This document shows positions 27,009-39,721 of a stretch of DNA of 39,721 nucleotides, in pieces. The translations under genes were made by a program, and so were the position numbers. The notes below the pieces were generated by a model. It saw nothing but the letters and a program-made list of their open reading frames with translations, ran no database searches and had not been told where the DNA came from. The DNA comes from an uncultured Anaerolineaceae bacterium. GTDB lineage: Bacteria; Chloroflexota; Anaerolineae; Anaerolineales; Villigracilaceae. The first letter of the stretch is position 1; each line of letters starts with the position of its first letter. The stretch is taken from NCBI GenBank assembly GCA_964585035.1, contig CAZPCR010000002.1, positions 1-39,721 of the forward strand, in the 5' to 3' direction.

Positions 27009-28541
27009 ATGCGGTCAAAATTCACATTTTCAAGGCGGGACTTTTTAAAACTCACTTCTCTTTTGCCTTTAACATGGGCTGTTCAACCGCTCACGAAGTT
27101 AACCGATGTCCCAAAGGCCACTGATAAACCTAACATAATTGTGTTGGTTTTTGATGCGTTGTCTGCTCCGCATGTGCCGCTGTTTGGATATGTACGGGAT
27201 ACCATGCCGAACTTGGCAAAGTTCGCAGAGAATGCGACGGTTTATCATAACCACTATTCCGCTGGGACTTTTACAGTACCGGGAACAGCATCCCTATTAA
27301 CGGGGTTGCACCCCTGGACGCATCGTGCGTTCCAATTGGGTGCGGGCGGCATTATCCATTCGCAGGTAAACCATCAAATATTTGCGGCGGTTTCCAATGC
27401 ACTTACCACGTATGGTTTTGCCCAGAACAGGTTTGCAGATTTGCTGTTAAGTCAGGCATCTAATTATATCGATGTTCATATCGATAATAGTAGTTTTAAT
27501 GTGGAACGTACTTTTGTCTATAATTCGCCTCTTTTTAGGAACGATGAGCGCATTGCCTACGCCAGTTTCGAAGATAACATTGTCCAAACCGGGGATGGAA
27601 CTGACAGCTCTCTTTTTTGGGGTTCTCTCTATCGACTGTGGGTTTTATTCACAAGGTTAAAGCTTACAAAAGATTTCGGAGAGAACTATCCTACTGGATT
27701 ACCGGATGCCACTGAATTATTTCGCTTGGAAGATCTTGTCGATGGTGCGATTAAAATCCTCGGTGACATAAAAGAACCGGCATTCACTTATTTACATTTT
27801 TATCCACCTCACGGCCTATATCATCCCCTGACTGGATTTGTAAATAAATTCAATGACGGCTGGATACCCGCGGATAAACCCATCCATCCTTTGGCTTACG
27901 ATCAGAATGATGCCGTTTTTTCTAATGCTACCAGGCTGCTATATGACCAATATATCGCGAGCTGGGATATGGAGGTCAGCCGGATTTTCGATTATTTAAA
28001 AACCTCCGGTCTGTTAGATCGGAGTTACGTCGTTATAACATCAGATCATGGTGAAATGTTTGAACGGGGTGAAGTGGGCCACTGGACTCGCTTGATATAT
28101 GAGGCAATTATGCATATTCCTTTGCTTATCTCAACCCCGGGACAAAAAGTGCGAAAGGATGTACAGACAGTAACGAGCAGTGTCGATATCCTTCCTACTC
28201 TCGCTCAAATGGCAGGTGAACCAGTTCCAGCCTGGAGCGAGGGTCAAATTCTTCCGGGACTAGGTGGCATAGAAACCCCAGATCGTAGCATTTTTACAGT
28301 GGATGCAAAGAATAATGCATCTTTCGCGCCATTAACAGAAACTTCAATATCACTTACAAAGGATCAGAATCGTCTAACCTATTATAAATATCCAAATTTT
28401 GGCGAACTATTTGAATTTTACAATCTCACCGAAGATCCGGATGAGCTCCACAACCTTTTTTCCTCCAAGCCGGCAATCGCAATCAAAATGCAGGAGGAAT
28501 TATTACAAAAACTATCGGAAGTGAACAAGCCATTTAATTAA
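27009..28541 (+). CDS. Tat-exported sulfatase-like hydrolase/transferase (alkaline-phosphatase superfamily)
   Basis: Twin-arginine signal SRRDFLKLTSL, PNIIVLVFDALS (metal-binding Asp) and TVPGTASLLTGLHP in place of CxPSRxxxLTG. Also SDHGEMFERGEVGH. Confidence 0.8.
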   Translation: MRSKFTFSRRDFLKLTSLLPLTWAVQPLTKLTDVPKATDKPNIIVLVFDALSAPHVPLFGYVRDTMPNLAKFAENATVYHNHYSAGTFTVPGTASLLTGLHPWTHRAFQLGAGGIIHSQVNHQIFAAVSNALTTYGFAQNRFADLLLSQASNYIDVHIDNSSFNVERTFVYNSPLFRNDERIAYASFEDNIVQTGDGTDSSLFWGSLYRLWVLFTRLKLTKDFGENYPTGLPDATELFRLEDLVDGAIKILGDIKEPAFTYLHFYPPHGLYHPLTGFVNKFNDGWIPADKPIHPLAYDQNDAVFSNATRLLYDQYIASWDMEVSRIFDYLKTSGLLDRSYVVITSDHGEMFERGEVGHWTRLIYEAIMHIPLLISTPGQKVRKDVQTVTSSVDILPTLAQMAGEPVPAWSEGQILPGLGGIETPDRSIFTVDAKNNASFAPLTETSISLTKDQNRLTYYKYPNFGELFEFYNLTEDPDELHNLFSSKPAIAIKMQEELLQKLSEVNKPFN

Positions 28542-29574: not shown

Positions 29575-30558
29575 TTATTTCTCTTTTTCAAATATATCGT
29601 AATATCCTTTATCCAATTCGTCGTTTGAAAGGTGGGCATAACGCTGAGTGACTTGAATATTGCTGTGGCGGGCTAATTCCTGGGCCAGTTTCAAATTTCC
29701 CGAAGCACGTAATACAGTAGTAACAAAATAATGACGGAACGAATGGGGCGTTATGGTTCCAACAGCCTTAACTCCTAACGCCTGGCGAACCCAAAACTTG
29801 ACAATATTGCGGCCACTGGCTGTTGTAATTGTTTTGATTTTTTTGCCGGCACCTTTGTCGTGACGAGCAAAGAGGGGCAGGGCACCCAAAGGCTTTCCAG
29901 ACTCACCGTCCAGGCTGGCGCGAATTGAGAGATAATCCTTCAAAGCCTTCATTGATCGGGAAGAAAACCTTACAACAGCCTGTTTATCGCCTTTTCCAAT
30001 AATGACAGCCCGTCCCTCGTTCCAATCAATATCACCGCGTCGCAGTCCGCAAGCTTCATGGACTCGTAATCCGGTATCTGCAAGGGTCAATAGAAAAGCC
30101 CTATCCCTTAATGCGCGTAACCGCTCTGTCTCATCCTTGATTAACATTAGTTCACTATCTGTTACAAATCCTAAAACGCTTTCTATGTCGTTTATTGGAA
30201 ATTGCGGTAAACGAATACCTGGTCGTCGGGAGCGTTGATGAATGAGCAGACGTAATCGCGGCAGGTTTATATCGCTTAATCGCTCAGCGGCCATATATTC
30301 GTAAAAACCCGCGGTAGCATGTAAATAGAGTTGTTCGGTGGCAGGAGAAAGGTCTTTGAGATATTTAGCCAGCCAAACAATCGAATCTTCTTTGAGTTCA
30401 TTGACAGGTGTGGAAATTGGGTCAAGATTGTTTTTTTTAAGGACCTTTAGAAAAATATTAGTCGCGTTTTTATAGGTACGGGCAGTATGAGCGCTTCTTG
30501 CAAGTTTGATATTATCAAGGTATTTCGCGATTGAAGCAGATATGGTGGTTTTTTCCAT
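29575..30558 (-). CDS. Tyrosine site-specific recombinase / integrase (XerC/D-like)
   Basis: N-terminal SAM-like core-binding domain. Catalytic residues sit in RDRAFLLTLADTGLRVHEACGLR, HSFRHYF and LARHSNIQVTQRYAHL (R..H-x-x-R..Y). Confidence 0.92.
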   Translation of the reverse strand: MEKTTISASIAKYLDNIKLARSAHTARTYKNATNIFLKVLKKNNLDPISTPVNELKEDSIVWLAKYLKDLSPATEQLYLHATAGFYEYMAAERLSDINLPRLRLLIHQRSRRPGIRLPQFPINDIESVLGFVTDSELMLIKDETERLRALRDRAFLLTLADTGLRVHEACGLRRGDIDWNEGRAVIIGKGDKQAVVRFSSRSMKALKDYLSIRASLDGESGKPLGALPLFARHDKGAGKKIKTITTASGRNIVKFWVRQALGVKAVGTITPHSFRHYFVTTVLRASGNLKLAQELARHSNIQVTQRYAHLSNDELDKGYYDIFEKEK

Positions 30559-30565
30559 ATCGATA

Positions 30566-30593
30566 ATTATACGAATTTACGTTCAAATGTCAA
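30566..30593 (-). promoter_or_regulatory. Consensus sigma70 promoter with an embedded GAAC-N4-ATTC palindrome; leaderless integrase mRNA predicted
   Basis: Minus strand: TTGACA (30593-30588), 16-nt spacer TTTGAACGTAAATTCG, TATAAT (30571-30566), then 7 nt (TATCGAT) to the ATG at 30558. Confidence 0.7.
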
Positions 30594-30699
30594 TGTTTCT
30601 GATAATATTACTTATCAAAAGCATTGGAACTAATATTCGAATTTACTAAAATTTCCACCCCCCCTTCAGCGTCATAAGATAAATAATTTTAAAGGACTA

Positions 30700-30792: not shown

Positions 30793-31581
30793 TTACCTTT
30801 GACCATGTCTGAGTCGTTGACTTCTTTGGACGGCATTAAGTCGCACCTTTTCCTGAGTCTTTTCATGTTTATTGAGTCCGAGCGTAACCAACCAATAAAT
30901 TGTCAAAAAAAGGATGACCAGGAAGGTACCCCCGTAGAGGAGCTTGGCAACCGCGAGGGCCGAATCGGTTCCGGCAAATAACCCATGAAGAGTTGCGCCT
31001 AGATATCCGACCAGGCTGAGTGTATGTATTCTTCTGAATGCCTGCGCACCGATTATTTTCCGAAGATAAAATGTCACGGTAACAAGCAGGGAAAGGTAGA
31101 AACCAATAATTCCCAACCCAACCCATAATGGACGATAGGTGTCAATGAAAGGAACCATTATCTGCCATATCGAGAATGGTAAAAACTGGTCGAACATTAG
31201 GACAACCACGTGCAGCAGTACAAATCCCAACCCAAGCAAAGAAAGAAACTCGTGGAAATCATACGAGTAAGTTCCGTCAACAGTTGGATGAAAAAACTTG
31301 GTTGAGATCGCCATTCCCCATACCATCGAGAGCCACAATAAGAAATATGACGTCAAACCCGCGGCTCTTGTTACATACCACCAGGCTTGTACTGTGTCCA
31401 TGGCAAAAAGGGATTGAAGTGAATTTCCCCAGGATGCGCCAGCGGACGTTTGGCTGAACCACAACAATGCCAGTAGACCGACGAAAATTATTCCTACAAA
31501 ACCTATGATTGCAAAAAATTTTAGGATTTGCCCCCTTGTTGAATTTGATTTTTTATTGATTAAAGACGTGGTCGTAGTCAT
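30793..31581 (-). CDS. Ferric-reductase-like (MsrQ/YedZ-type) di-haem b transmembrane protein
   Basis: Six TM helices. There are two His pairs spaced 13-14 residues apart (HEFLSLLGLGFVLLH and HTLSLVGYLGATLH). The ATG at 31581 has AAGGAG 7 nt upstream. It overlaps the apbE 3' end by 29 nt. Confidence 0.75.
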   Translation of the reverse strand: MTTTTSLINKKSNSTRGQILKFFAIIGFVGIIFVGLLALLWFSQTSAGASWGNSLQSLFAMDTVQAWWYVTRAAGLTSYFLLWLSMVWGMAISTKFFHPTVDGTYSYDFHEFLSLLGLGFVLLHVVVLMFDQFLPFSIWQIMVPFIDTYRPLWVGLGIIGFYLSLLVTVTFYLRKIIGAQAFRRIHTLSLVGYLGATLHGLFAGTDSALAVAKLLYGGTFLVILFLTIYWLVTLGLNKHEKTQEKVRLNAVQRSQRLRHGQR

Positions 31582-32497
31582 TAAGATACTCCTTGCCATA
31601 TTGTGAACCGGAAAGGCAGCCATCACGATCTATCGTGATATACGCCAATTCTGGAAACTTTGATGCCATTTTATAGGCTTCGAGTTCGCCCCCAATCAAC
31701 AAGGCTTTGGCATACGCTTCGGCCTCGGTTATTTTAGGAGTGATAACCGTTACACTTAACCAGTCAGTCTTTGCTGGTTCTCCTGTGCGGGGATCGATTA
31801 AGTGATGCCGGACCTGCCCATTTTGAATCCACGTTCGTTTTGTAATTGATGAGGTAACAACAGCGCACTGACCGACATACAAAAGGGCTGCAGATCGATC
31901 GGGGTTACGCGGATCTTCTAATTCGACTTCCCATCTCGATCCTGAACTCGGTATTCCAACCAAGTTAATATCCCCTCCCGCGCTGACCGCGCAGGCTGAA
32001 GCGTAAGTCCTCAGCAAATTTGAGGCCTTCTCCACAATCCACCCTTTGGCGATCCCTCCCAGATCAATTTCCATGGATGAGGGCAATCGAACGCGTATAG
32101 CTGTTTGGTCAAAATCGATATCAGTTAAGGCCAGACTGGTGGAGTGGTACTTTCCGAAAACTGGATCAGCTCCTTCCGCACGGATTTTCTCCATGCTTTT
32201 ATCGTAACCTGCACGTTTTAAATCCGGAAGGATGGAAGGATTGAACAACCCGCCTGTCTCATCGAAATACTTGAGAGATAAAGTCAACAATTCCATTAAA
32301 TCTTCTGAGACTTTATGCCATTTGCCTGCAGAGCGATTAAGTTCGGAAAGTTCGCTGGTGGGCAAAAAACGACTGAAACGGCTTTCTGAAACCTCGATAA
32401 ACGCCCTCGCAGCCTGGAGCCCTGAAATAGCCTGATCATCCCCCTCCGCTGCCATAAAAATTAAAGTATTCATTGCCCGAAATTCAAGCGTTTGCAT
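31553..32497 (-). CDS. apbE: FAD:protein FMN transferase (ApbE family)
   Basis: FRAMNT, SRFSRFLPTSELSELN, DLGGIAKGW, SAGGDI, VVTSS and HLIDPRTGEP. No obvious signal peptide. Confidence 0.9.
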   Translation of the reverse strand: MQTLEFRAMNTLIFMAAEGDDQAISGLQAARAFIEVSESRFSRFLPTSELSELNRSAGKWHKVSEDLMELLTLSLKYFDETGGLFNPSILPDLKRAGYDKSMEKIRAEGADPVFGKYHSTSLALTDIDFDQTAIRVRLPSSMEIDLGGIAKGWIVEKASNLLRTYASACAVSAGGDINLVGIPSSGSRWEVELEDPRNPDRSAALLYVGQCAVVTSSITKRTWIQNGQVRHHLIDPRTGEPAKTDWLSVTVITPKITEAEAYAKALLIGGELEAYKMASKFPELAYITIDRDGCLSGSQYGKEYLNDYDHVFNQ

Positions 32498-32811
32498 CAA
32501 GACCCACCGGTATGCATTCTTGGCATGGGCGCGGAGTTATTAAATGTTTGGATCGACGGCTGAACAGGTTGTTGAACCTGTGGTTGAACAGAGAGAGGAG
32601 AATTTTGAAATAGATTCCAGCTATTTTGATTATTGCCACTGTTGAGGCCGGAGAGCGGTGGAAGAGTTGGTAAAGGAGCGATGTTAGAGGATGATGGCGA
32701 GCTGTTCTGGACGGGTTTCGGCGCATGCGCAAGCATTATCCAGCCCGCTAGAAAGCTCAATACACTCGTTAGCATGATCCAAATACGTAAGCCAATTTTA
32801 AAAAGTTTCAT
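32497..32811 (-). CDS. Small membrane-anchored P/Q/S/N-rich protein, unknown function
   Basis: An N-terminal TM helix (IWIMLTSVLSFLAGWIMLA), then about 75 aa of low-complexity sequence ending ...PRMHTGGS. Its TGA stop overlaps the apbE ATG (TGATG). Confidence 0.55.
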   Translation of the reverse strand: MKLFKIGLRIWIMLTSVLSFLAGWIMLAHAPKPVQNSSPSSSNIAPLPTLPPLSGLNSGNNQNSWNLFQNSPLSVQPQVQQPVQPSIQTFNNSAPMPRMHTGGS

Positions 32812-32825
32812 TTCTGCCTTTCTTA

Positions 32826-33206
32826 TTAATTATTGATGAATATCCGGCCATCCGAGGTTAATGTGATCAAGCCTCGTTGTTGTAACGCGTTCAACAATGC
32901 TTGGATTTGCTGCATTTGTTGTTGTGACTGTTGTACCTGCACGTTTGCCTGGCCAAGTTGTTGTTGTAATTGAGCTTCACGTGCCTGATATTGTTGATCA
33001 CGAGTTTGATATTGTGCAACTAAATTCTGTAATTGCTGGATTTGCGATTGTTGATTTGAATTTGGATCAACAACTTGCGCTTGTGAGTTTGCTGCTACCG
33101 TGCCATTCGGGTTGAATAATGCCACACCGCTAATTGCAAGCATAGCCCCCCCCACACAGGCGGTCATTAGTAGTGCTGCTAGTAATGCAATGAATTGTTT
33201 TTTCAT
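32826..33206 (-). CDS. Small exported or anchored Gln-rich coiled-coil protein, unknown function
   Basis: An ATG with GGAGG 5 nt upstream. N-terminal signal/lipobox-like LLMTAC, then Q-rich heptad-like sequence (QQSQIQQLQNLVAQYQ...QQSQQQMQQIQALLNALQQ). Confidence 0.6.
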   Translation of the reverse strand: MKKQFIALLAALLMTACVGGAMLAISGVALFNPNGTVAANSQAQVVDPNSNQQSQIQQLQNLVAQYQTRDQQYQAREAQLQQQLGQANVQVQQSQQQMQQIQALLNALQQRGLITLTSDGRIFINN

Positions 33207-33406
33207 AGGTCCTCCGGGCGAGAATATCAGTAAAAGTATACATTTCGAAGATTACGGAGAGATGAAGTCGAATAAACCTGGATTTATAACGTCCTTTCTA
33301 CCCTAAAGGGGTTCCTTCCCAGAATTTTTAGATAGGCCACTTAGGAGGTTGTCATCTTCTGATCATGTTGAAGTGTTAAAATAGAAAGGATTGGGATAAA
33401 AAGATT

Positions 33407-34087
33407 ATGCGCATTTTACTTATTGAAGATAATCATCGTTTGAATGACAGCCTGCGAACAACCCTCATAGAGGACGGCTATGCAGTAGACGCCGCTTATG
33501 ATGGATTGGAAGGCGAAGAAATGGCCTTGGTGACCCCATACGATATTATTGTTCTCGACATTATGCTACCCAAGCGGGATGGTATCGAGGTTTGTCGTTC
33601 ATTAAGGGATCAAAAAAATATCACCCCTATTTTGATGTTGACTGCAAGGGACGCACTCGACGACCGTGTCCTTGGACTTGATAGTGGCGCTGATGATTAT
33701 CTCGTGAAACCCTTCGAGATCAAGGAGTTGCGTGCTCGGCTGCGGGCATTGTTGCGGCGTGAGATGGATAATAAAAGCGGAGACCTCCTGATTGAAGACC
33801 TGCGTTTGGATCCTGCCACTCATTATGTCTGGCGGGAGGATAAACCGATCGATTTGACGGCCAAAGAATATGCCTTACTCGAATATATGATGCGGAATCC
33901 GAACCGACTGATTACTCGGGAAATGGTGATTGCGCATCTATGGGATTACGGCCAAAGCATTGCTTCTAATGTTGTTGACGTATATATAAGGCGTCTACGT
34001 CGGAAAGTGGACGACCCGTTTAAAGTTAAGCTGATCGAAACCATACGCGGCGCAGGGTACCGATTGCACGATCCTGAACGGAAATGA
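33407..34087 (+). CDS. OmpR/PhoB-family response regulator
   Basis: Receiver domain (LLIEDN, VLDIMLP, KPF) plus a winged-helix C-terminus (LTAKEYALLEYMM...VDVYIRRLRRKV...IETIRGAGYRL). Confidence 0.95.
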   Translation: MRILLIEDNHRLNDSLRTTLIEDGYAVDAAYDGLEGEEMALVTPYDIIVLDIMLPKRDGIEVCRSLRDQKNITPILMLTARDALDDRVLGLDSGADDYLVKPFEIKELRARLRALLRREMDNKSGDLLIEDLRLDPATHYVWREDKPIDLTAKEYALLEYMMRNPNRLITREMVIAHLWDYGQSIASNVVDVYIRRLRRKVDDPFKVKLIETIRGAGYRLHDPERK

Positions 34088-35577
34088 TCCAGGTCATGAA
34101 ATCTCTTCGAGCTTCAATATCAGGCTTTTTCCAAAGCATCCGTTTCAAGATAACCTTGTGGTTTGTATTGATACTCGCAATTGTCTTAACGGCATTTAGT
34201 GTTTTTATCCTATTTACACAATACCGCGATTATCAATTGGACGCGGTTGGTAATATGCAGGAAAAACTTACTAGGTTGCAGGCTTATTTCCGAAGTGCAG
34301 CGTGGCAAGATTCAAATCTCTCCCCCACGGATGTTCCTAAAAGCCAGGCTCCGCTTCAAACCGGTGACTTAATTATATTGACAGATTTAAATGGACAGGT
34401 TCTTCAAAACTGGGGCGCTGATCTTGCAGAGCCTGATAATATTGTTGGCTCACTTCTACCGGCTGCAGCTCAAAACCAGGATACTCGTGTTTACCAGCAA
34501 ACCATTCCTGTTATAAATAATAAAGATAAGATAAACACCGACTATCTATTTATTATTGTTCCCGTTGTACGCGGTGATGCAATGCTGGGGTTTCTTATTC
34601 TCGGCAGCCCATCTCCTTTGGCCGATCATCTTCGCCGCCTGGCGTTTTCTCTTCTATTGGGAAGTTTGGGAATGCTGGTGGTTGCTTTTCTTGGCGGTTT
34701 GTGGCTGGCAGATCGTGCCATGCGGCCCGTTAAAGCAATAACAAATGCAGCCCGAACGATCAGTGAAAGCGATTTGAATCAGAGATTGAATTTACGGGGC
34801 CATGATGAACTTGCCCATTTAGCGGCCACATTTGATGAAATGCTAAATCGGTTACAAACTGCGTTCGAGCGCCAAAGGCAGTTTCTTGCCGATGCCAGTC
34901 ACGAGCTCCGGACACCTTTGACTGTCGTGAATTTGGAAGTGGGCCGTGTGCTTACCGGTCATCGCACTTCCAGTGAATATCAACATGCATTGCAAACCGT
35001 AGATGCGGAAAGCTCTCGCATGACAAGACTGGTCAATGAATTAATGGCCCTGGCCCGGATGGATACAGGCCAGGCATTATTAAAGTTGGAAGATCTTGAT
35101 CTAAGTGATGTGACCGTTGAGGCGTTTGAGCGCATGTCCCCTTTGGCAGAAAGGCAAAACATCGTCCTCGAGTTGGGCGAGATGCCTGAACTGGCCATAC
35201 ATGGTGACCGTCATTACCTTATTCAAATGATTAGCAATTTGATCGAAAACGGTATTAAATATAGCGGATCGGGGCAAAAGGTGCGGATCGAGAATGGATT
35301 AGTCCACAACAATGATCATGATTTAGCTTCATTGCGAGTCTCAGACACAGGACCGGGAATTGCATCGGAGTTTTTACCTTACATCTTTGACCGCTTCTAT
35401 CGGATTGATTCAGCACGCTCAAGGGAAAATGACGAAGATTCGGACTCACCTACTGGCAGCGGACTTGGCCTTTCGATTGTTGCCTGGATCGTTCAGGTAC
35501 ACAGCGGCAAAATTCACGTAACCAGCACCATCGGCCAGGGCTCGACTTTTGAAGTGACATTACCGATAAAGCATTAA
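34084..35577 (+). CDS. Sensor histidine kinase (two TM helices, HAMP, HisKA, HATPase_c)
   Basis: H-box FLADASHELRTPLT, N-box ENGIKYS and G-boxes SDTGPGI / GSGLGLSIV. It has an ATGA start/stop overlap with the response regulator gene. Confidence 0.95.
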   Translation: MIQVMKSLRASISGFFQSIRFKITLWFVLILAIVLTAFSVFILFTQYRDYQLDAVGNMQEKLTRLQAYFRSAAWQDSNLSPTDVPKSQAPLQTGDLIILTDLNGQVLQNWGADLAEPDNIVGSLLPAAAQNQDTRVYQQTIPVINNKDKINTDYLFIIVPVVRGDAMLGFLILGSPSPLADHLRRLAFSLLLGSLGMLVVAFLGGLWLADRAMRPVKAITNAARTISESDLNQRLNLRGHDELAHLAATFDEMLNRLQTAFERQRQFLADASHELRTPLTVVNLEVGRVLTGHRTSSEYQHALQTVDAESSRMTRLVNELMALARMDTGQALLKLEDLDLSDVTVEAFERMSPLAERQNIVLELGEMPELAIHGDRHYLIQMISNLIENGIKYSGSGQKVRIENGLVHNNDHDLASLRVSDTGPGIASEFLPYIFDRFYRIDSARSRENDEDSDSPTGSGLGLSIVAWIVQVHSGKIHVTSTIGQGSTFEVTLPIKH

Positions 35578-35578
35578 C

Positions 35579-35606
35579 TTGACAATTAGAATAAATGTTC
35601 TATAAT
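35579..35606 (+). promoter_or_regulatory. Consensus sigma70 promoter with an embedded GAAT-N4-GTTC palindrome; leaderless radical-SAM mRNA predicted
   Basis: TTGACA (35579-35584), 16-nt spacer ATTAGAATAAATGTTC, TATAAT (35601-35606), then 7 nt (TTAGAGG) to the ATG at 35614. Confidence 0.7.
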
Positions 35607-35613
35607 TTAGAGG

Positions 35614-36780
35614 ATGAATGCATTTATCCGTTTACAGATGCTCACCCGCCAAATGGATCTGGAACCAGCCGAGGAATCTCGAGAAATACAGGCGACTGAA
35701 TCGCGGCCGGGTTGTTTCACACCTAAACAAAAAGATGCCATTTTTGTACACCCGGCGAAGCTTCCAAACGGTAAAAGTATTAAGTTACTCAAGACTCTAT
35801 TAACTTCCGCTTGCGAGCGGGATTGTTATTACTGCCCGTTTCGTGCTGGTCGCGATTTTCGTCGTGCAACTTTCAAGCCTGAAGAATTTGCCAAAGTCTT
35901 CCTTGAATTGAATCGGGTAGGCATTGCAGAAGGAGCTTTCCTAAGTTCAGGCATCGTCGGGGGCGGCTTGAGGACGCAGGATAAGCTAATCGATACAGCC
36001 GATATATTGCGACGTAAACTCGGATTCCGCGGTTATCTCCATTTGAAAATTATGCCAGGCGCAGAAAAAGCCCAGGTTGAACGTGTTATGCAACTGGCCG
36101 ACCGGGTATCTCTAAATCTTGAAGCTCCAAATACAAAACGGCTTGCGCGCCTTGCACCTCATAAACATTTCCTGGAAGAATTGCTCCGTCCATTAAAATG
36201 GGTGGAGGAGATCAGGCGAAGCCAACCTTCCAGTAAGGGTTGGAATGGCCGGTGGCCGTCAACAACTACTCAATTCGTCGTAGGCGGATCCGACGAGACC
36301 GATCTGGAGTTGCTTTCAACAACAGCCTGGTTGAATAAAAATGTTGGACTCAAGCGGGCATACTTCTCTGCTTTTCATCCCATTGTAGACACGCCATTTG
36401 AGAATAAAGCCCCTACAGACCCGATGCGTGAACATCGTCTGTATCAAGCATCCTTCCTTCTTAGGGATTATGGCTTTGATCTGGAAGAATTGCCTTTTAT
36501 TGATGATGGATTCCTGCCTCTCCATTCAGATCCAAAACTCGCATGGGCCCAAGGTAAATTGAAAGAACAACCGGTTGAAATCAATCACGCAGACCGGAAT
36601 GCCTTGCTTAGAATACCAGGGATTGGACCAAGGGGTGTGGATGCAATAATTCAAATACGGCGCATCAATAAACTCAATGATCTTTCATCTTTACGAAAGT
36701 TAGGTGTGATTGCAGAAAAAGCCGCCCCCTTTATCTTGCTCAACGGCAAACGTCCTGCTTATCAGTCTCAACTTTTCTAA
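35614..36780 (+). CDS. Putative DNA modification/repair radical SAM protein (TIGR03916-like) with a C-terminal helix-hairpin-helix
   Basis: CERDCYYC (CxxxCxxC), FLSSGI, YLHLKIMPG, REHRLYQASFLLRDYGF and LLRIPGIGPRGVDAIIQIRR. Confidence 0.85.
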   Translation: MNAFIRLQMLTRQMDLEPAEESREIQATESRPGCFTPKQKDAIFVHPAKLPNGKSIKLLKTLLTSACERDCYYCPFRAGRDFRRATFKPEEFAKVFLELNRVGIAEGAFLSSGIVGGGLRTQDKLIDTADILRRKLGFRGYLHLKIMPGAEKAQVERVMQLADRVSLNLEAPNTKRLARLAPHKHFLEELLRPLKWVEEIRRSQPSSKGWNGRWPSTTTQFVVGGSDETDLELLSTTAWLNKNVGLKRAYFSAFHPIVDTPFENKAPTDPMREHRLYQASFLLRDYGFDLEELPFIDDGFLPLHSDPKLAWAQGKLKEQPVEINHADRNALLRIPGIGPRGVDAIIQIRRINKLNDLSSLRKLGVIAEKAAPFILLNGKRPAYQSQLF

Positions 36781-36794
36781 ATGATTGTGTCGAA

Positions 36795-36841
36795 TTCACA
36801 AAAACAGGTGAATGAATAATTCATTCACCTGTTTTTGTGAA
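36795..36841. terminator. Bidirectional intrinsic terminator (22-bp perfect palindrome)
   Basis: TTCACAAAAACAGGTGAATGAA-TAA-TTCATTCACCTGTTTTTGTGAA. The inner stem CAGGTGAATGAA/TTCATTCACCTG is followed by TTTTTGTG on either strand. Confidence 0.8.
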
Positions 36842-36950: not shown

Positions 36951-37478
36951 ATGGATACTACTGCATCTCTTGTTATTCGTACTCAAAATAAATATAAGAG
37001 CTTGGCTACAAAAGTTGCATATAAAAAAGGGGAGATCATTTGCCAGATACCAACCGAATCGCTTTATAACAAACCGAATACTTATACGGTTCAAATCGGA
37101 CGCGAGCAGCACGTGGAAGTAAAGGAATTGGCTTCGATGAATCATTCTTGCGAACCAAGTACTTTCCTCGACACGACTCGAATGCTCGTATTCGCTGCAC
37201 GCGACCTGGTTCCGGGCGATGAACTGACTTTCTTTTACCCCTCAACTGAATGGGAGATGAGTTCTCCCTTCATCTATTTGTGCGGTGCGTCAAGCTGCAT
37301 TCACGTGGTTGCTGGGGCGCGCTTCCTGCCTCTATCTACGCTCGAACACCATTACCTTAACCACCATATTCGTGAACTTATGATTGAATTGTTGAATAAT
37401 ACAGAGCAGCATCTTATGCAATTGGAGCGCGAGAGAAAGTTTGATGTAATTTCACAAAACAATCCACCCATTGCGTAA
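36951..37478 (+). CDS. SET-domain protein (putative protein-lysine methyltransferase)
   Basis: NHSCEPS, GDELTFFY and a post-SET-like LCGASSC. 175 aa. Confidence 0.75.
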   Translation: MDTTASLVIRTQNKYKSLATKVAYKKGEIICQIPTESLYNKPNTYTVQIGREQHVEVKELASMNHSCEPSTFLDTTRMLVFAARDLVPGDELTFFYPSTEWEMSSPFIYLCGASSCIHVVAGARFLPLSTLEHHYLNHHIRELMIELLNNTEQHLMQLERERKFDVISQNNPPIA

Positions 37479-39639: not shown

Positions 39640-39721
39640 GGGGACGTGCTGGAATTGGCAGACAGGCATGACTTAGGATCATGTGCCGCAAGGCGTGTGG
39701 GTTCAAGTCCCACCGTCCCCA
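39640..39721 (+). tRNA. tRNA-Leu (anticodon UAG), class II with a long variable arm. The window ends at the discriminator base.
   Basis: The cloverleaf folds by hand. Acceptor GGGGACG/CGTCCCC, D stem CTG/CAG with loop GAATTGGCAGA, and anticodon stem CATGA/TCATG with loop CTTAGGA. The variable arm is 13 nt and the T arm is GTGGG-TTCAAGT-CCCAC. Confidence 0.9.

Follow-up and report, generated by a model that had tools for sequence, protein, structure and literature searches.

In streptococci and lactococci, a single Xer-type recombinase gene, xerS, immediately adjoins its recombination site difSL, and both act as one module (PMC5357621). Other systems in which a single recombinase serves a nearly palindromic site are XerH/difH of the epsilon-proteobacteria, archaeal XerA/dif and XerL of the Legionellales, the last of which was reportedly likewise revealed by the integration of mobile elements (PMC9765430). 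Within the Chloroflexi, Kono et al. (2011) predicted dif only for three Dehalococcoides genomes, and in the literature searched we found no description of Xer/dif or of chromosome-dimer resolution in Anaerolineae. Here we analyze 39,721 nucleotides of an uncultured Anaerolineaceae bacterium (contig CAZPCR010000002.1 of assembly GCA_964585035.1; hereafter the window), which carry a xer-like tyrosine recombinase gene, a dif-like site touching its promoter and, on the opposite strand, a radical-SAM gene with a promoter of the same design. A sequence-only reading of this DNA had called the recombinase an integrase and had proposed that one DNA-damage-responsive repressor controls both genes. Comparison with orthologues makes it probable, in our judgment, that the recombinase is a housekeeping Xer protein expressed from a strong leaderless promoter set against its own dif-like site, that the palindrome within this promoter is not a working operator, and that the one in the radical-SAM promoter is real. 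We read the locus as a Xer/dif module that had not been described before.

By its layout, XerS/difSL is the nearest analogue, as there too a single recombinase gene stands beside its site. However, difSL is 31 bp long with unequal arms and an 11-bp centre, whereas here near-equal 13-bp arms flank a 6-bp centre, and the site overlaps the -35 element or sits in the 5′ untranslated region (UTR). The single-recombinase, nearly palindromic organization of XerH, XerA and XerL is found here as well, but in a different phylum, with a different site sequence, with a protein scoring below the XerA cut-off, and in a system known from sequence alone. The dif site of E. coli is GGTGCGCATAA-TGTATA-TTATGTTAAAT. 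Its inner ATAA-N6-TTAT recurs in the Anaerolineales site, together with the 6-bp centre and the terminus-like location of XerCD/dif in E. coli and B. subtilis; in contrast to that system, the gene is linked to its site and the protein scores far below the corresponding cut-offs.

A scan of GTDB species genomes identified 80 orthologous recombinase loci, all from metagenome-assembled genomes (MAGs) of Anaerolineales/Anaerolineae. When 79 of these and the window were compared, the dif-like site was present upstream of the recombinase gene in 69 of the 80 sequences. The 72 sites aligned, including those of three close relatives, yield the consensus ATGCTTTCGATAA-GTATTA-TTATCATAAACAT, whose arms are on average complementary at 10.3 of 13 positions, and this palindromic character suggests one recombinase rather than two. 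The site thus described has two inverted arms and a centre, within the range of 28-32 bp overall and 6-8 bp for the centre. A degenerate palindromic pattern for the site occurs exactly once in 74 of 81 loci of roughly 20 kb and never in shuffled sequences. Neither a second copy of the site nor a second copy of the insert end motif described below is present within the 40-kb window, and an invertible segment or shufflon within these 40 kb was rejected on that basis.

The recombinase matches PF00589 (Phage_integrase, 3e-28), and PF02899 is recorded in most of its homologues. It is a simple tyrosine recombinase, built of a core-binding and a catalytic domain, with the R-K-H-R-H/W-Y set: the catalytic residues R165, K192, H272, R275, H298 and Y307 are all present and do not vary among 25 sequences. 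Of the solved structures, XerA (5hxy, 9.6e-19) and XerD come closest, and the best NCBIfam match is XerC (132.9 bits against a cut-off of 335), followed by XerA (117.2 against 220), XerD (108.7 against 329.6) and XerS (64.8 against 267, C-terminal part only). Since every curated Xer threshold is missed, the protein is placed in a separate lineage outside those equivalogs. In a search of 5.8 billion proteins, more than 120 clusters were 72-94% identical over their full length, and all named clusters among them came from Chloroflexi/Anaerolineales; identity across Anaerolineales is 66-94%. The 80 loci belong to distinct GTDB species and conserve the synteny with the radical-SAM gene, as expected under wide vertical conservation. 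This level of conservation fits a housekeeping Xer-type protein and not a phage or integron integrase, and the gene is probably a vertically inherited Xer-family recombinase. The parallel drawn in the sequence-only reading with integron and prophage integrases thus gives way to a highly conserved Xer-like recombinase beside a dif-like site.

Two arrangements of site and promoter were recognized. In type A (the window and 29 orthologues), the site is followed by TTGACA-16-TATAAT, 6-7 nt and the ATG. In type B (about 36 loci), a G-run and TTGACA-17-TATACT are followed by 5 nt, the site, AAGGA and the ATG, which places the site in the 5′ UTR with a Shine-Dalgarno sequence after it. Both types are present in two of the loci numbered L011-L090 (L012 and L018; L numbers denote individual related loci and contigs). 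All 30 type-A promoters share invariant hexamers, a spacer of 16 nt and a constant distance between the -35 element and the dif-like site, and 29 have 6-7 nt between the -10 element and the ATG (8 nt in L074). In the window, site and -35 element share one base, the first T of the -35, with which the right arm ends. The same ATG was called by gene callers on 13 independent contigs, and the mRNA is predicted to be leaderless, starting about 7 nt after the -10 element at the A of this ATG.

With at most one mismatch, TTGACA-N16-TATAAT occurs three times in the window against 0.35 expected, a count reached by none of 100 shuffles, and the only two perfect copies are the xer-like and radical-SAM promoters. 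Across 1.4 Mb of related Anaerolineales DNA there are 52 perfect promoters of the form TTGACA-N16-18-TATAAT: 29 precede xer genes, 12 precede radical-SAM genes and 11 lie elsewhere, three of these last being type-B promoters of xer. Because 41 of the 52 belong to these two genes, the combination of perfect hexamers, 16-nt spacer and leaderless start is real, rare and conserved for both. The sequence-only reading had described exactly this architecture for the recombinase (minus strand, TTGACA, 16 nt, TATAAT, 7 nt, ATG) and an identical geometry at the radical-SAM promoter, and both descriptions are correct. Its further view of one promoter as a near-copy of the other stands for the hexamers, spacer and ATG distance; the palindromic box, however, lies in the opposite orientation and 1 nt out of register, standing 3 nt from the -35 and 1 nt from the -10 element in the recombinase promoter, against 4 and 0 in the radical-SAM promoter. 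Likewise, the argument that two such promoters exceed chance holds for the design, which orthologues of both genes conserve, but not for the palindrome of the recombinase promoter, which is not conserved. It had also asked whether orthologous recombinases keep the whole cassette: they keep the hexamers and the 16-nt spacer but not the GAAC half of the box.

These arrangements suggest how the module could work. Gene and site would form one unit, whose role is most likely the resolution of chromosome dimers. In type A, recombinase on the right arm and sigma region 4 would compete for the -35 element of a promoter that would otherwise be very strong; in type B, recombinase bound to the site in the 5′ UTR would limit its own transcription. 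The outcome in both cases would be negative autoregulation through site occupancy.

The position of the site was also compared with GC skew, measured in the 47 loci whose two flanks each extend for at least 6 kb and read over ±10 kb. Mean skew is +0.031 on the left flank and -0.017 on the right, with the change of sign at the site, and the left value exceeds the right in 40 of the 47 loci (Wilcoxon p = 2.7e-8). In 1-kb bins the left skew is positive over all 9 kb, and pseudo-sites placed 5 kb away give no skew shift, so the shift is specific to the site. For a location at the replication terminus, this pattern is supportive, not decisive.

The radical-SAM promoter provides a measure of what a conserved operator looks like in these genomes. 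It reads TTGACA / ATTAGAATAAATGTTC / TATAAT / TTAGAGG / ATG, and its -10 element is overlapped by the palindrome TAGAAYNNNNGTTCTA, which at least 32 of 36 Anaerolineales orthologues retain within the pattern CTTGACA-N4-AGAAY-N4-GTTC|TATAAT-N6/7-ATGGA. The encoded protein is 72-92% conserved and scores 275.6 bits with TIGR03916 (rSAM_link_UDG), below the cut-off of 343.5. COG4277, to which it is related, is a recurrent member of SOS regulons (PMC8565304), and the LexA box of B. subtilis is GAAC-N4-GTTC (PMC4234289), the Gram-positive (Cheo) box whose core TAGAAYNNNNGTTCTA shares. On a weight matrix built from the orthologue boxes, the radical-SAM box of the window scores 25.7 bits. The motif scan proposed in the sequence-only reading bore out this part of its claim: searching metagenomes for AGAAC-N4-GTTCTATAAT returned 120 loci, most with TTGAC(A) four bases upstream, and the genes downstream include lexA (two, one of them with two boxes), 13 Y-family polymerases, uvrB, radA, a rarA-like ATPase and five COG4277 genes. 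As the same cassette fronts lexA, uvrB, radA and Y-family polymerase genes, a LexA-type operator of the Gram-positive type is the best reading of the radical-SAM palindrome. By tblastn, neither the window nor 1.41 Mb of related loci yielded a lexA or recA, and 120 homologues of the scanned LexA share no contig with our xer or radical-SAM lists.

The palindrome in the recombinase promoter presents a different picture. GAAT-N4-GTTC is found five times in the window, where 1.9 copies are expected and 2 of 100 shuffles yield as many: twice inside open reading frames (ORFs), at 27774 and 31825, and further as the radical-SAM box, at 30627-30638 and in the recombinase spacer, where the minus strand reads GAAC-N4-ATTC. 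The spacer copy is real, one base away from the 30574-30585 given in the sequence-only reading, and as GAAT-TTAC-GTTC between the -35 and -10 elements it is within one mismatch of the GAAC-N4-GTTC core. On the matrix that gives conserved operators 16.7-26.9 bits, however, it scores 8.3 bits as a 16-mer and 4.5 bits as a symmetrised 14-mer, which puts it 34th in the window, about 9% of random 215-nt windows match it, and the best LexA-type score upstream of any xer orthologue is 9.8 bits. Spacer positions 4-8, which hold GAAC in the window, carry about 0 bits across the 30 type-A promoters; the GAAC half is absent from all 29 orthologues, none of which matches more than two of the four bases there, and GAA-N6-TTC occurs in none of them. 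The closest relative, L091 (94% protein identity), has TTTCCACTTAACTCCA in place of the spacer of the window, and relatives at 84% identity have ATTCGTCAAAACTTCG or TATTTTGAAAACTTCG. The flanks of the box are C and A, where real operators have invariant A and T.

What the orthologues do conserve is the 3′ end of the spacer. In the 30 type-A promoters AA.TTCG has an information content of 1.2-1.8 bits, against about 0 for the remaining spacer; AAnTTCG stands at the same position in 24 of the 29 orthologues and occurs there without any left half. Because only this end is conserved, the palindrome is the TTCG element joined to a GAAC private to the species, and it is probably not a working operator. 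These comparisons speak against a single repressor for both genes, as the sequence-only reading had proposed, and the two genes do not appear to have an operator in common.

Several observations weigh against our interpretation of the locus. The recombinase falls under the cut-offs of all curated XerC, XerD, XerA and XerS models, and canonical XerC/XerD with another dif may also occur in these genomes. The right skew is asymmetric, most negative inside the xer gene (-0.075) and near zero beyond 4 kb; gene-specific composition thus contributes to it, and skew over ±10 kb is weak evidence. The argument for autoregulation is purely one of geometry, and our interpretation does not account for the conservation of AAnTTCG. 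Moreover, the GAAT...GTTC core matches variants of real operators, 40% of whose left halves read GAAT, and as the box departs from them only in its flanks and by 1 nt in register, LexA may bind it weakly in this species.

The alternative that survives best takes AAnTTCG as a half-site for another regulator or as a third recombinase-binding arm, with the palindrome of the window as its by-product. In addition to its information content, GTAAATTCG recurs in a decayed upstream promoter and in L025, AAnTTCG is found in some upstream type-B spacers, and TTCGTATAA resembles, by eye, the left-arm text TTCGATAA, a likeness that nevertheless needs a 1-nt gap. TTCG precedes the -10 element in none of the 11 other perfect promoters, three of which have GCG before TATAAT, but this sample is small. 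The element also has no palindromic partner at a fixed distance, and the GAA-N1-5-TTC spacing varies among orthologues, an inconsistency on which a variable-spacing GAA...TTC palindrome was rejected as an alternative operator. We regard a regulatory or recombinational role of this kind as unlikely, though the best supported of the alternatives.

Rather less probable is that the spacer palindrome represents a weak LexA operator recently gained in this species, through which DNA damage would induce xer, and with it site recombination or element mobility, together with the radical-SAM gene. The core is one mismatch from a B. subtilis-type box (PMC4234289), some of the conserved radical-SAM operators have GAAT or ATTC half-sites, the position of the box between the hexamers would let a repressor block RNA polymerase, and a second full GAAT-N4-GTTC stands 43 nt upstream. 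LexA control of recombinases is known in integrons, as cited in PMC4234289. Besides the low scores and the exchanged flanks, this idea must contend with a box that is kept in none of the 29 orthologues and is absent even from L091, where 6 of the 16 spacer bases are changed with the hexamers and site kept, a difference that suggests a freely drifting spacer. The upstream copy, for its part, sits in the decayed promoter, 640 bp away from the gene's promoter in insert-carrying strains.

Those inserts constitute a second line of observations on the dif-like site. The 13 contigs encode an identical recombinase, but upstream of the promoter at least four sequence variants branch off, each of them at the site, where many of the contigs also end; the coexistence of empty and occupied alleles accounts for these breaks. 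L097 (6958-7613) carries a 640-bp insert (...CCAATGCTTTTGATAAGTA / TTCGCAGG...GGTGATGATAAGTA / ATATTATCAGAAACATTGACA), whose insertion point in window numbering falls between 30609 and 30608. A second, related insert of 561 bp, with junctions likewise inside GATAAGTA in the core, was reconstructed from L099 and L002 (ena:ERZ27245399:k141_2363270), the latter having the recombinase gene 284 nt from its end beside the insert; the reported length of L002, 39,721, equals that of the window, yet the two sequences differ. An insert is also present in L098 and L001. Empty sites are found in the window, L004, L005, L007 and L100-L102, and occupied sites in sister samples. At the right junction the arm-centre-arm structure is restored, and at the left junction only the left arm is retained. 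The 640-bp insert encodes one ORF ending in a CxxC...CxxC zinc ribbon, and the start of this ORF was called at the ATG of the left arm, in the chromosome. The 561-bp insert has a related zinc-ribbon coding region in which no complete ATG-initiated ORF could be delimited. For the ORF there was no Pfam or PHROG family, only sub-threshold CXXCH noise. Homologues of it lie just upstream of xer in L091 (440-616), L049 (9206-9496) and L028 (482-718), and L072 (8916-9738) has two tandem copies there. Extra left-arm copies (TATGATAAGT / TATGATAACT) mark the right ends of inserts in L049, L072, L002 and L010.

Insertions of this kind, with no recombinase of their own, within the core of the host site and leaving a dif-like site at one junction, appear to follow the pattern of integrative mobile elements that exploit Xer recombination (IMEX), and the exact placement of their junctions in the core is indirect evidence for recombination at the site. 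As in CTXphi, TLC and the gonococcal island, recombinase-less inserts occupy the site core, the site is rebuilt on one side and tandem copies occur; those described here differ in measuring only 0.56-0.64 kb, in holding one zinc-ribbon ORF and no phage or replication genes, and in being recognized by sequence comparison only. They could be a possible IMEX variant mobilised, we infer, by the host recombinase, in which case a circular form of the 640-bp element would carry the junction ...GGTGATGATAAGTATTCGCAGG... A fuller picture, which we put forward only tentatively, would combine a single-recombinase Xer/dif system whose site in the promoter region, overlapping the -35 element or in the 5′ UTR, sets recombinase supply through its occupancy, the smallest Xer-exploiting elements seen to date (about 0.6 kb, with a zinc-ribbon ORF fused to the left-arm ATG), and a nascent LexA box in one species.

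Small single-ORF inserts at one specific site beside a recombinase gene, in several variants within one species and in tandem in L072, also recall an integron-like system, in which the site would be an attI-like platform and the inserts captured gene cassettes. In integrons, too, the recombinase promoter adjoins the site, and the C-terminal 48 residues of the protein match the integron-integrase model TIGR02249. That match, however, is confined to residues 266-313 and reaches 46.3 bits against a cut-off of 265, on which an integron integrase was rejected, and the XerC, XerA and XerD models all score higher. The order-wide distribution of protein and site, with one copy per locus and a GC-skew switch, fits a housekeeping Xer/dif unit instead; the inserts read towards the recombinase gene and not away from it, no attC-like folded sites were seen, insert-free loci are the majority, and the LexA-like box is not conserved. 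A cassette platform is therefore highly improbable. That the gene is a prophage or genomic-island integrase, with the variable upstream DNA as att junctions, is scarcely credible: Pfam Phage_integrase and PHROG integrase matches, variable upstream sequence and contig breaks speak for it, but the flanks are ordinary chromosome, with mutS, ABC transporters and a two-component system among the genes, the downstream side is identical in all contigs, the recombinase lacks an arm-binding domain and an adjacent tRNA (the only tRNA of the window is at 39640), no Rfam matches lie near the gene, orthologues keep the radical-SAM synteny, and the variable DNA is confined to 0.56-0.64 kb inside a palindromic core.

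Table 1 Features of the recombinase and radical-SAM loci in the window.
Feature	Position	Strand	Remark
xer-like tyrosine recombinase gene	29575..30558	-	327 aa; the "integrase" of the sequence-only reading
Core promoter and start codon of the xer-like gene	30556..30593	-	predicted leaderless transcript
-35 element TTGACA	30593-30588	-	
Spacer TTTGAACGTAAATTCG	30587-30572	-	16 nt
AAATTCG	30572..30578	-	directly upstream of the -10 element; conserved part of the spacer
Palindrome GAATTTACGTTC	30573..30584	+	weak LexA-box look-alike, private to the species
-10 element TATAAT	30571-30566	-	
ATG	30558-30556	-	preceded by TATCGAT (7 nt) between the -10 element and ATG
dif-like site ATGCTTTTGATAA-GTAATA-TTATCAGAAACAT (minus-strand text)	30593..30624	.	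32-bp palindrome
Centre of the dif-like site	30606-30611		6 bp, between 13-bp inverted arms
Crossover region GATAAGTA	30609..30616	-	one copy at each junction of the 640-bp insert of L097
Decayed second promoter	30625..30686	-	upstream of the site; in register with type-B promoters of orthologues
Intervening genes	30793..35577	.	about 4.8 kb: 262-aa protein, ApbE, two small ORFs, two-component system
Radical-SAM promoter	35579..35616	+	LexA-type operator TAGAATAAATGTTCTA (35587-35602) overlapping the -10 element; leaderless ATG 35614
Radical-SAM/HhH protein gene	35614..36780	+	COG4277 / TIGR03916-like, 388 aa

Upstream of the site, the window retains what we interpret as a decayed second promoter, with a G-run and with TGGAAA and ATTAGT standing for TTGACA and TATACT, respectively; it is identical to L025 at 39 of 62 positions (median 24 of 62). 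The extra half-site reported in the sequence-only reading, a 9-nt repeat of CGAATTTAC at 30638-30646 and 30572-30580, is real, and the upstream copy adjoins the full GAAT-N4-GTTC of 30627-30638 (minus strand), which that reading had overlooked. In insert-bearing strains the decayed promoter is moved another 640 bp away from the gene. Also observed was a hydrophobic ORF of about 41-43 aa (MIDTSLIVV...) that runs through the dif-like site and ends in the promoter spacer (L010, 55-185; L091, upstream of 849). Two synonymous changes and a single conservative one separate its versions in these two species, and hence a real peptide may be encoded here.

The two genes that share the promoter design had been described as unlinked. 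In related genomes they are neighbours: in 36 of the 80 loci no more than 10 kb separates xer from a radical-SAM gene upstream of it, always divergent, and in six of them (L015, L016, L020, L029, L068 and L090) the two are directly adjacent, with the site in an intergenic region of about 350 nt and without the intervening genes of the window. This synteny indicates that radical-SAM and xer are ancestral divergent neighbours flanking the site.

These analyses set a real SOS operator, that of the radical-SAM gene, apart from a look-alike in front of the recombinase gene, and illustrate how orthologue comparison can overturn an attractive pattern seen in a single genome. An order-wide, gene-linked site would offer an easy marker of the replication terminus for hundreds of uncultured genomes, the overlap of promoter and recombination site a testable case, and the inserts a natural system of very small integrative elements. 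The contig breaks at the locus explain a recurring assembly problem in these MAGs.

Downstream of the radical-SAM gene lies a SET-domain gene (36951-37478), where TIGR03916 members normally pair with TIGR03915/UDG; unlike the SOS-regulated COG4277/UDG cassette, the radical-SAM gene here has no adjacent UDG/TIGR03915 partner. Between the two genes, after the radical-SAM stop, a perfect 23-nt inverted repeat (TTCACAAAAACAGGTGAATGAAT and its complement, 36795-36841) has 1 nt between its arms and is longer than a usual terminator stem. The second-best match of the window to the LexA matrix, TGGAAAATAAATTCTA at 567-582, reaches 13.6 bits, less than any conserved operator, and is probably due to chance in AT-rich DNA; it runs onto the ATG of a methyltransferase ORF (582-1160). 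In three species, strong LexA-type boxes (15-19 bits) precede xer by a few hundred bases in DNA between genes (L047, 9656; L019, 4573; L031, 122), with no recognisable gene downstream. Finally, in five of the scanned metagenomic loci (L144, L150, L166, L182 and L203) the LexA-type cassette is followed by genes for membrane proteins of about 230-265 aa without a Pfam match, which share FEIFNFSTT.FAL.DVLG and form a candidate SOS-regulated family, perhaps of division inhibitors.

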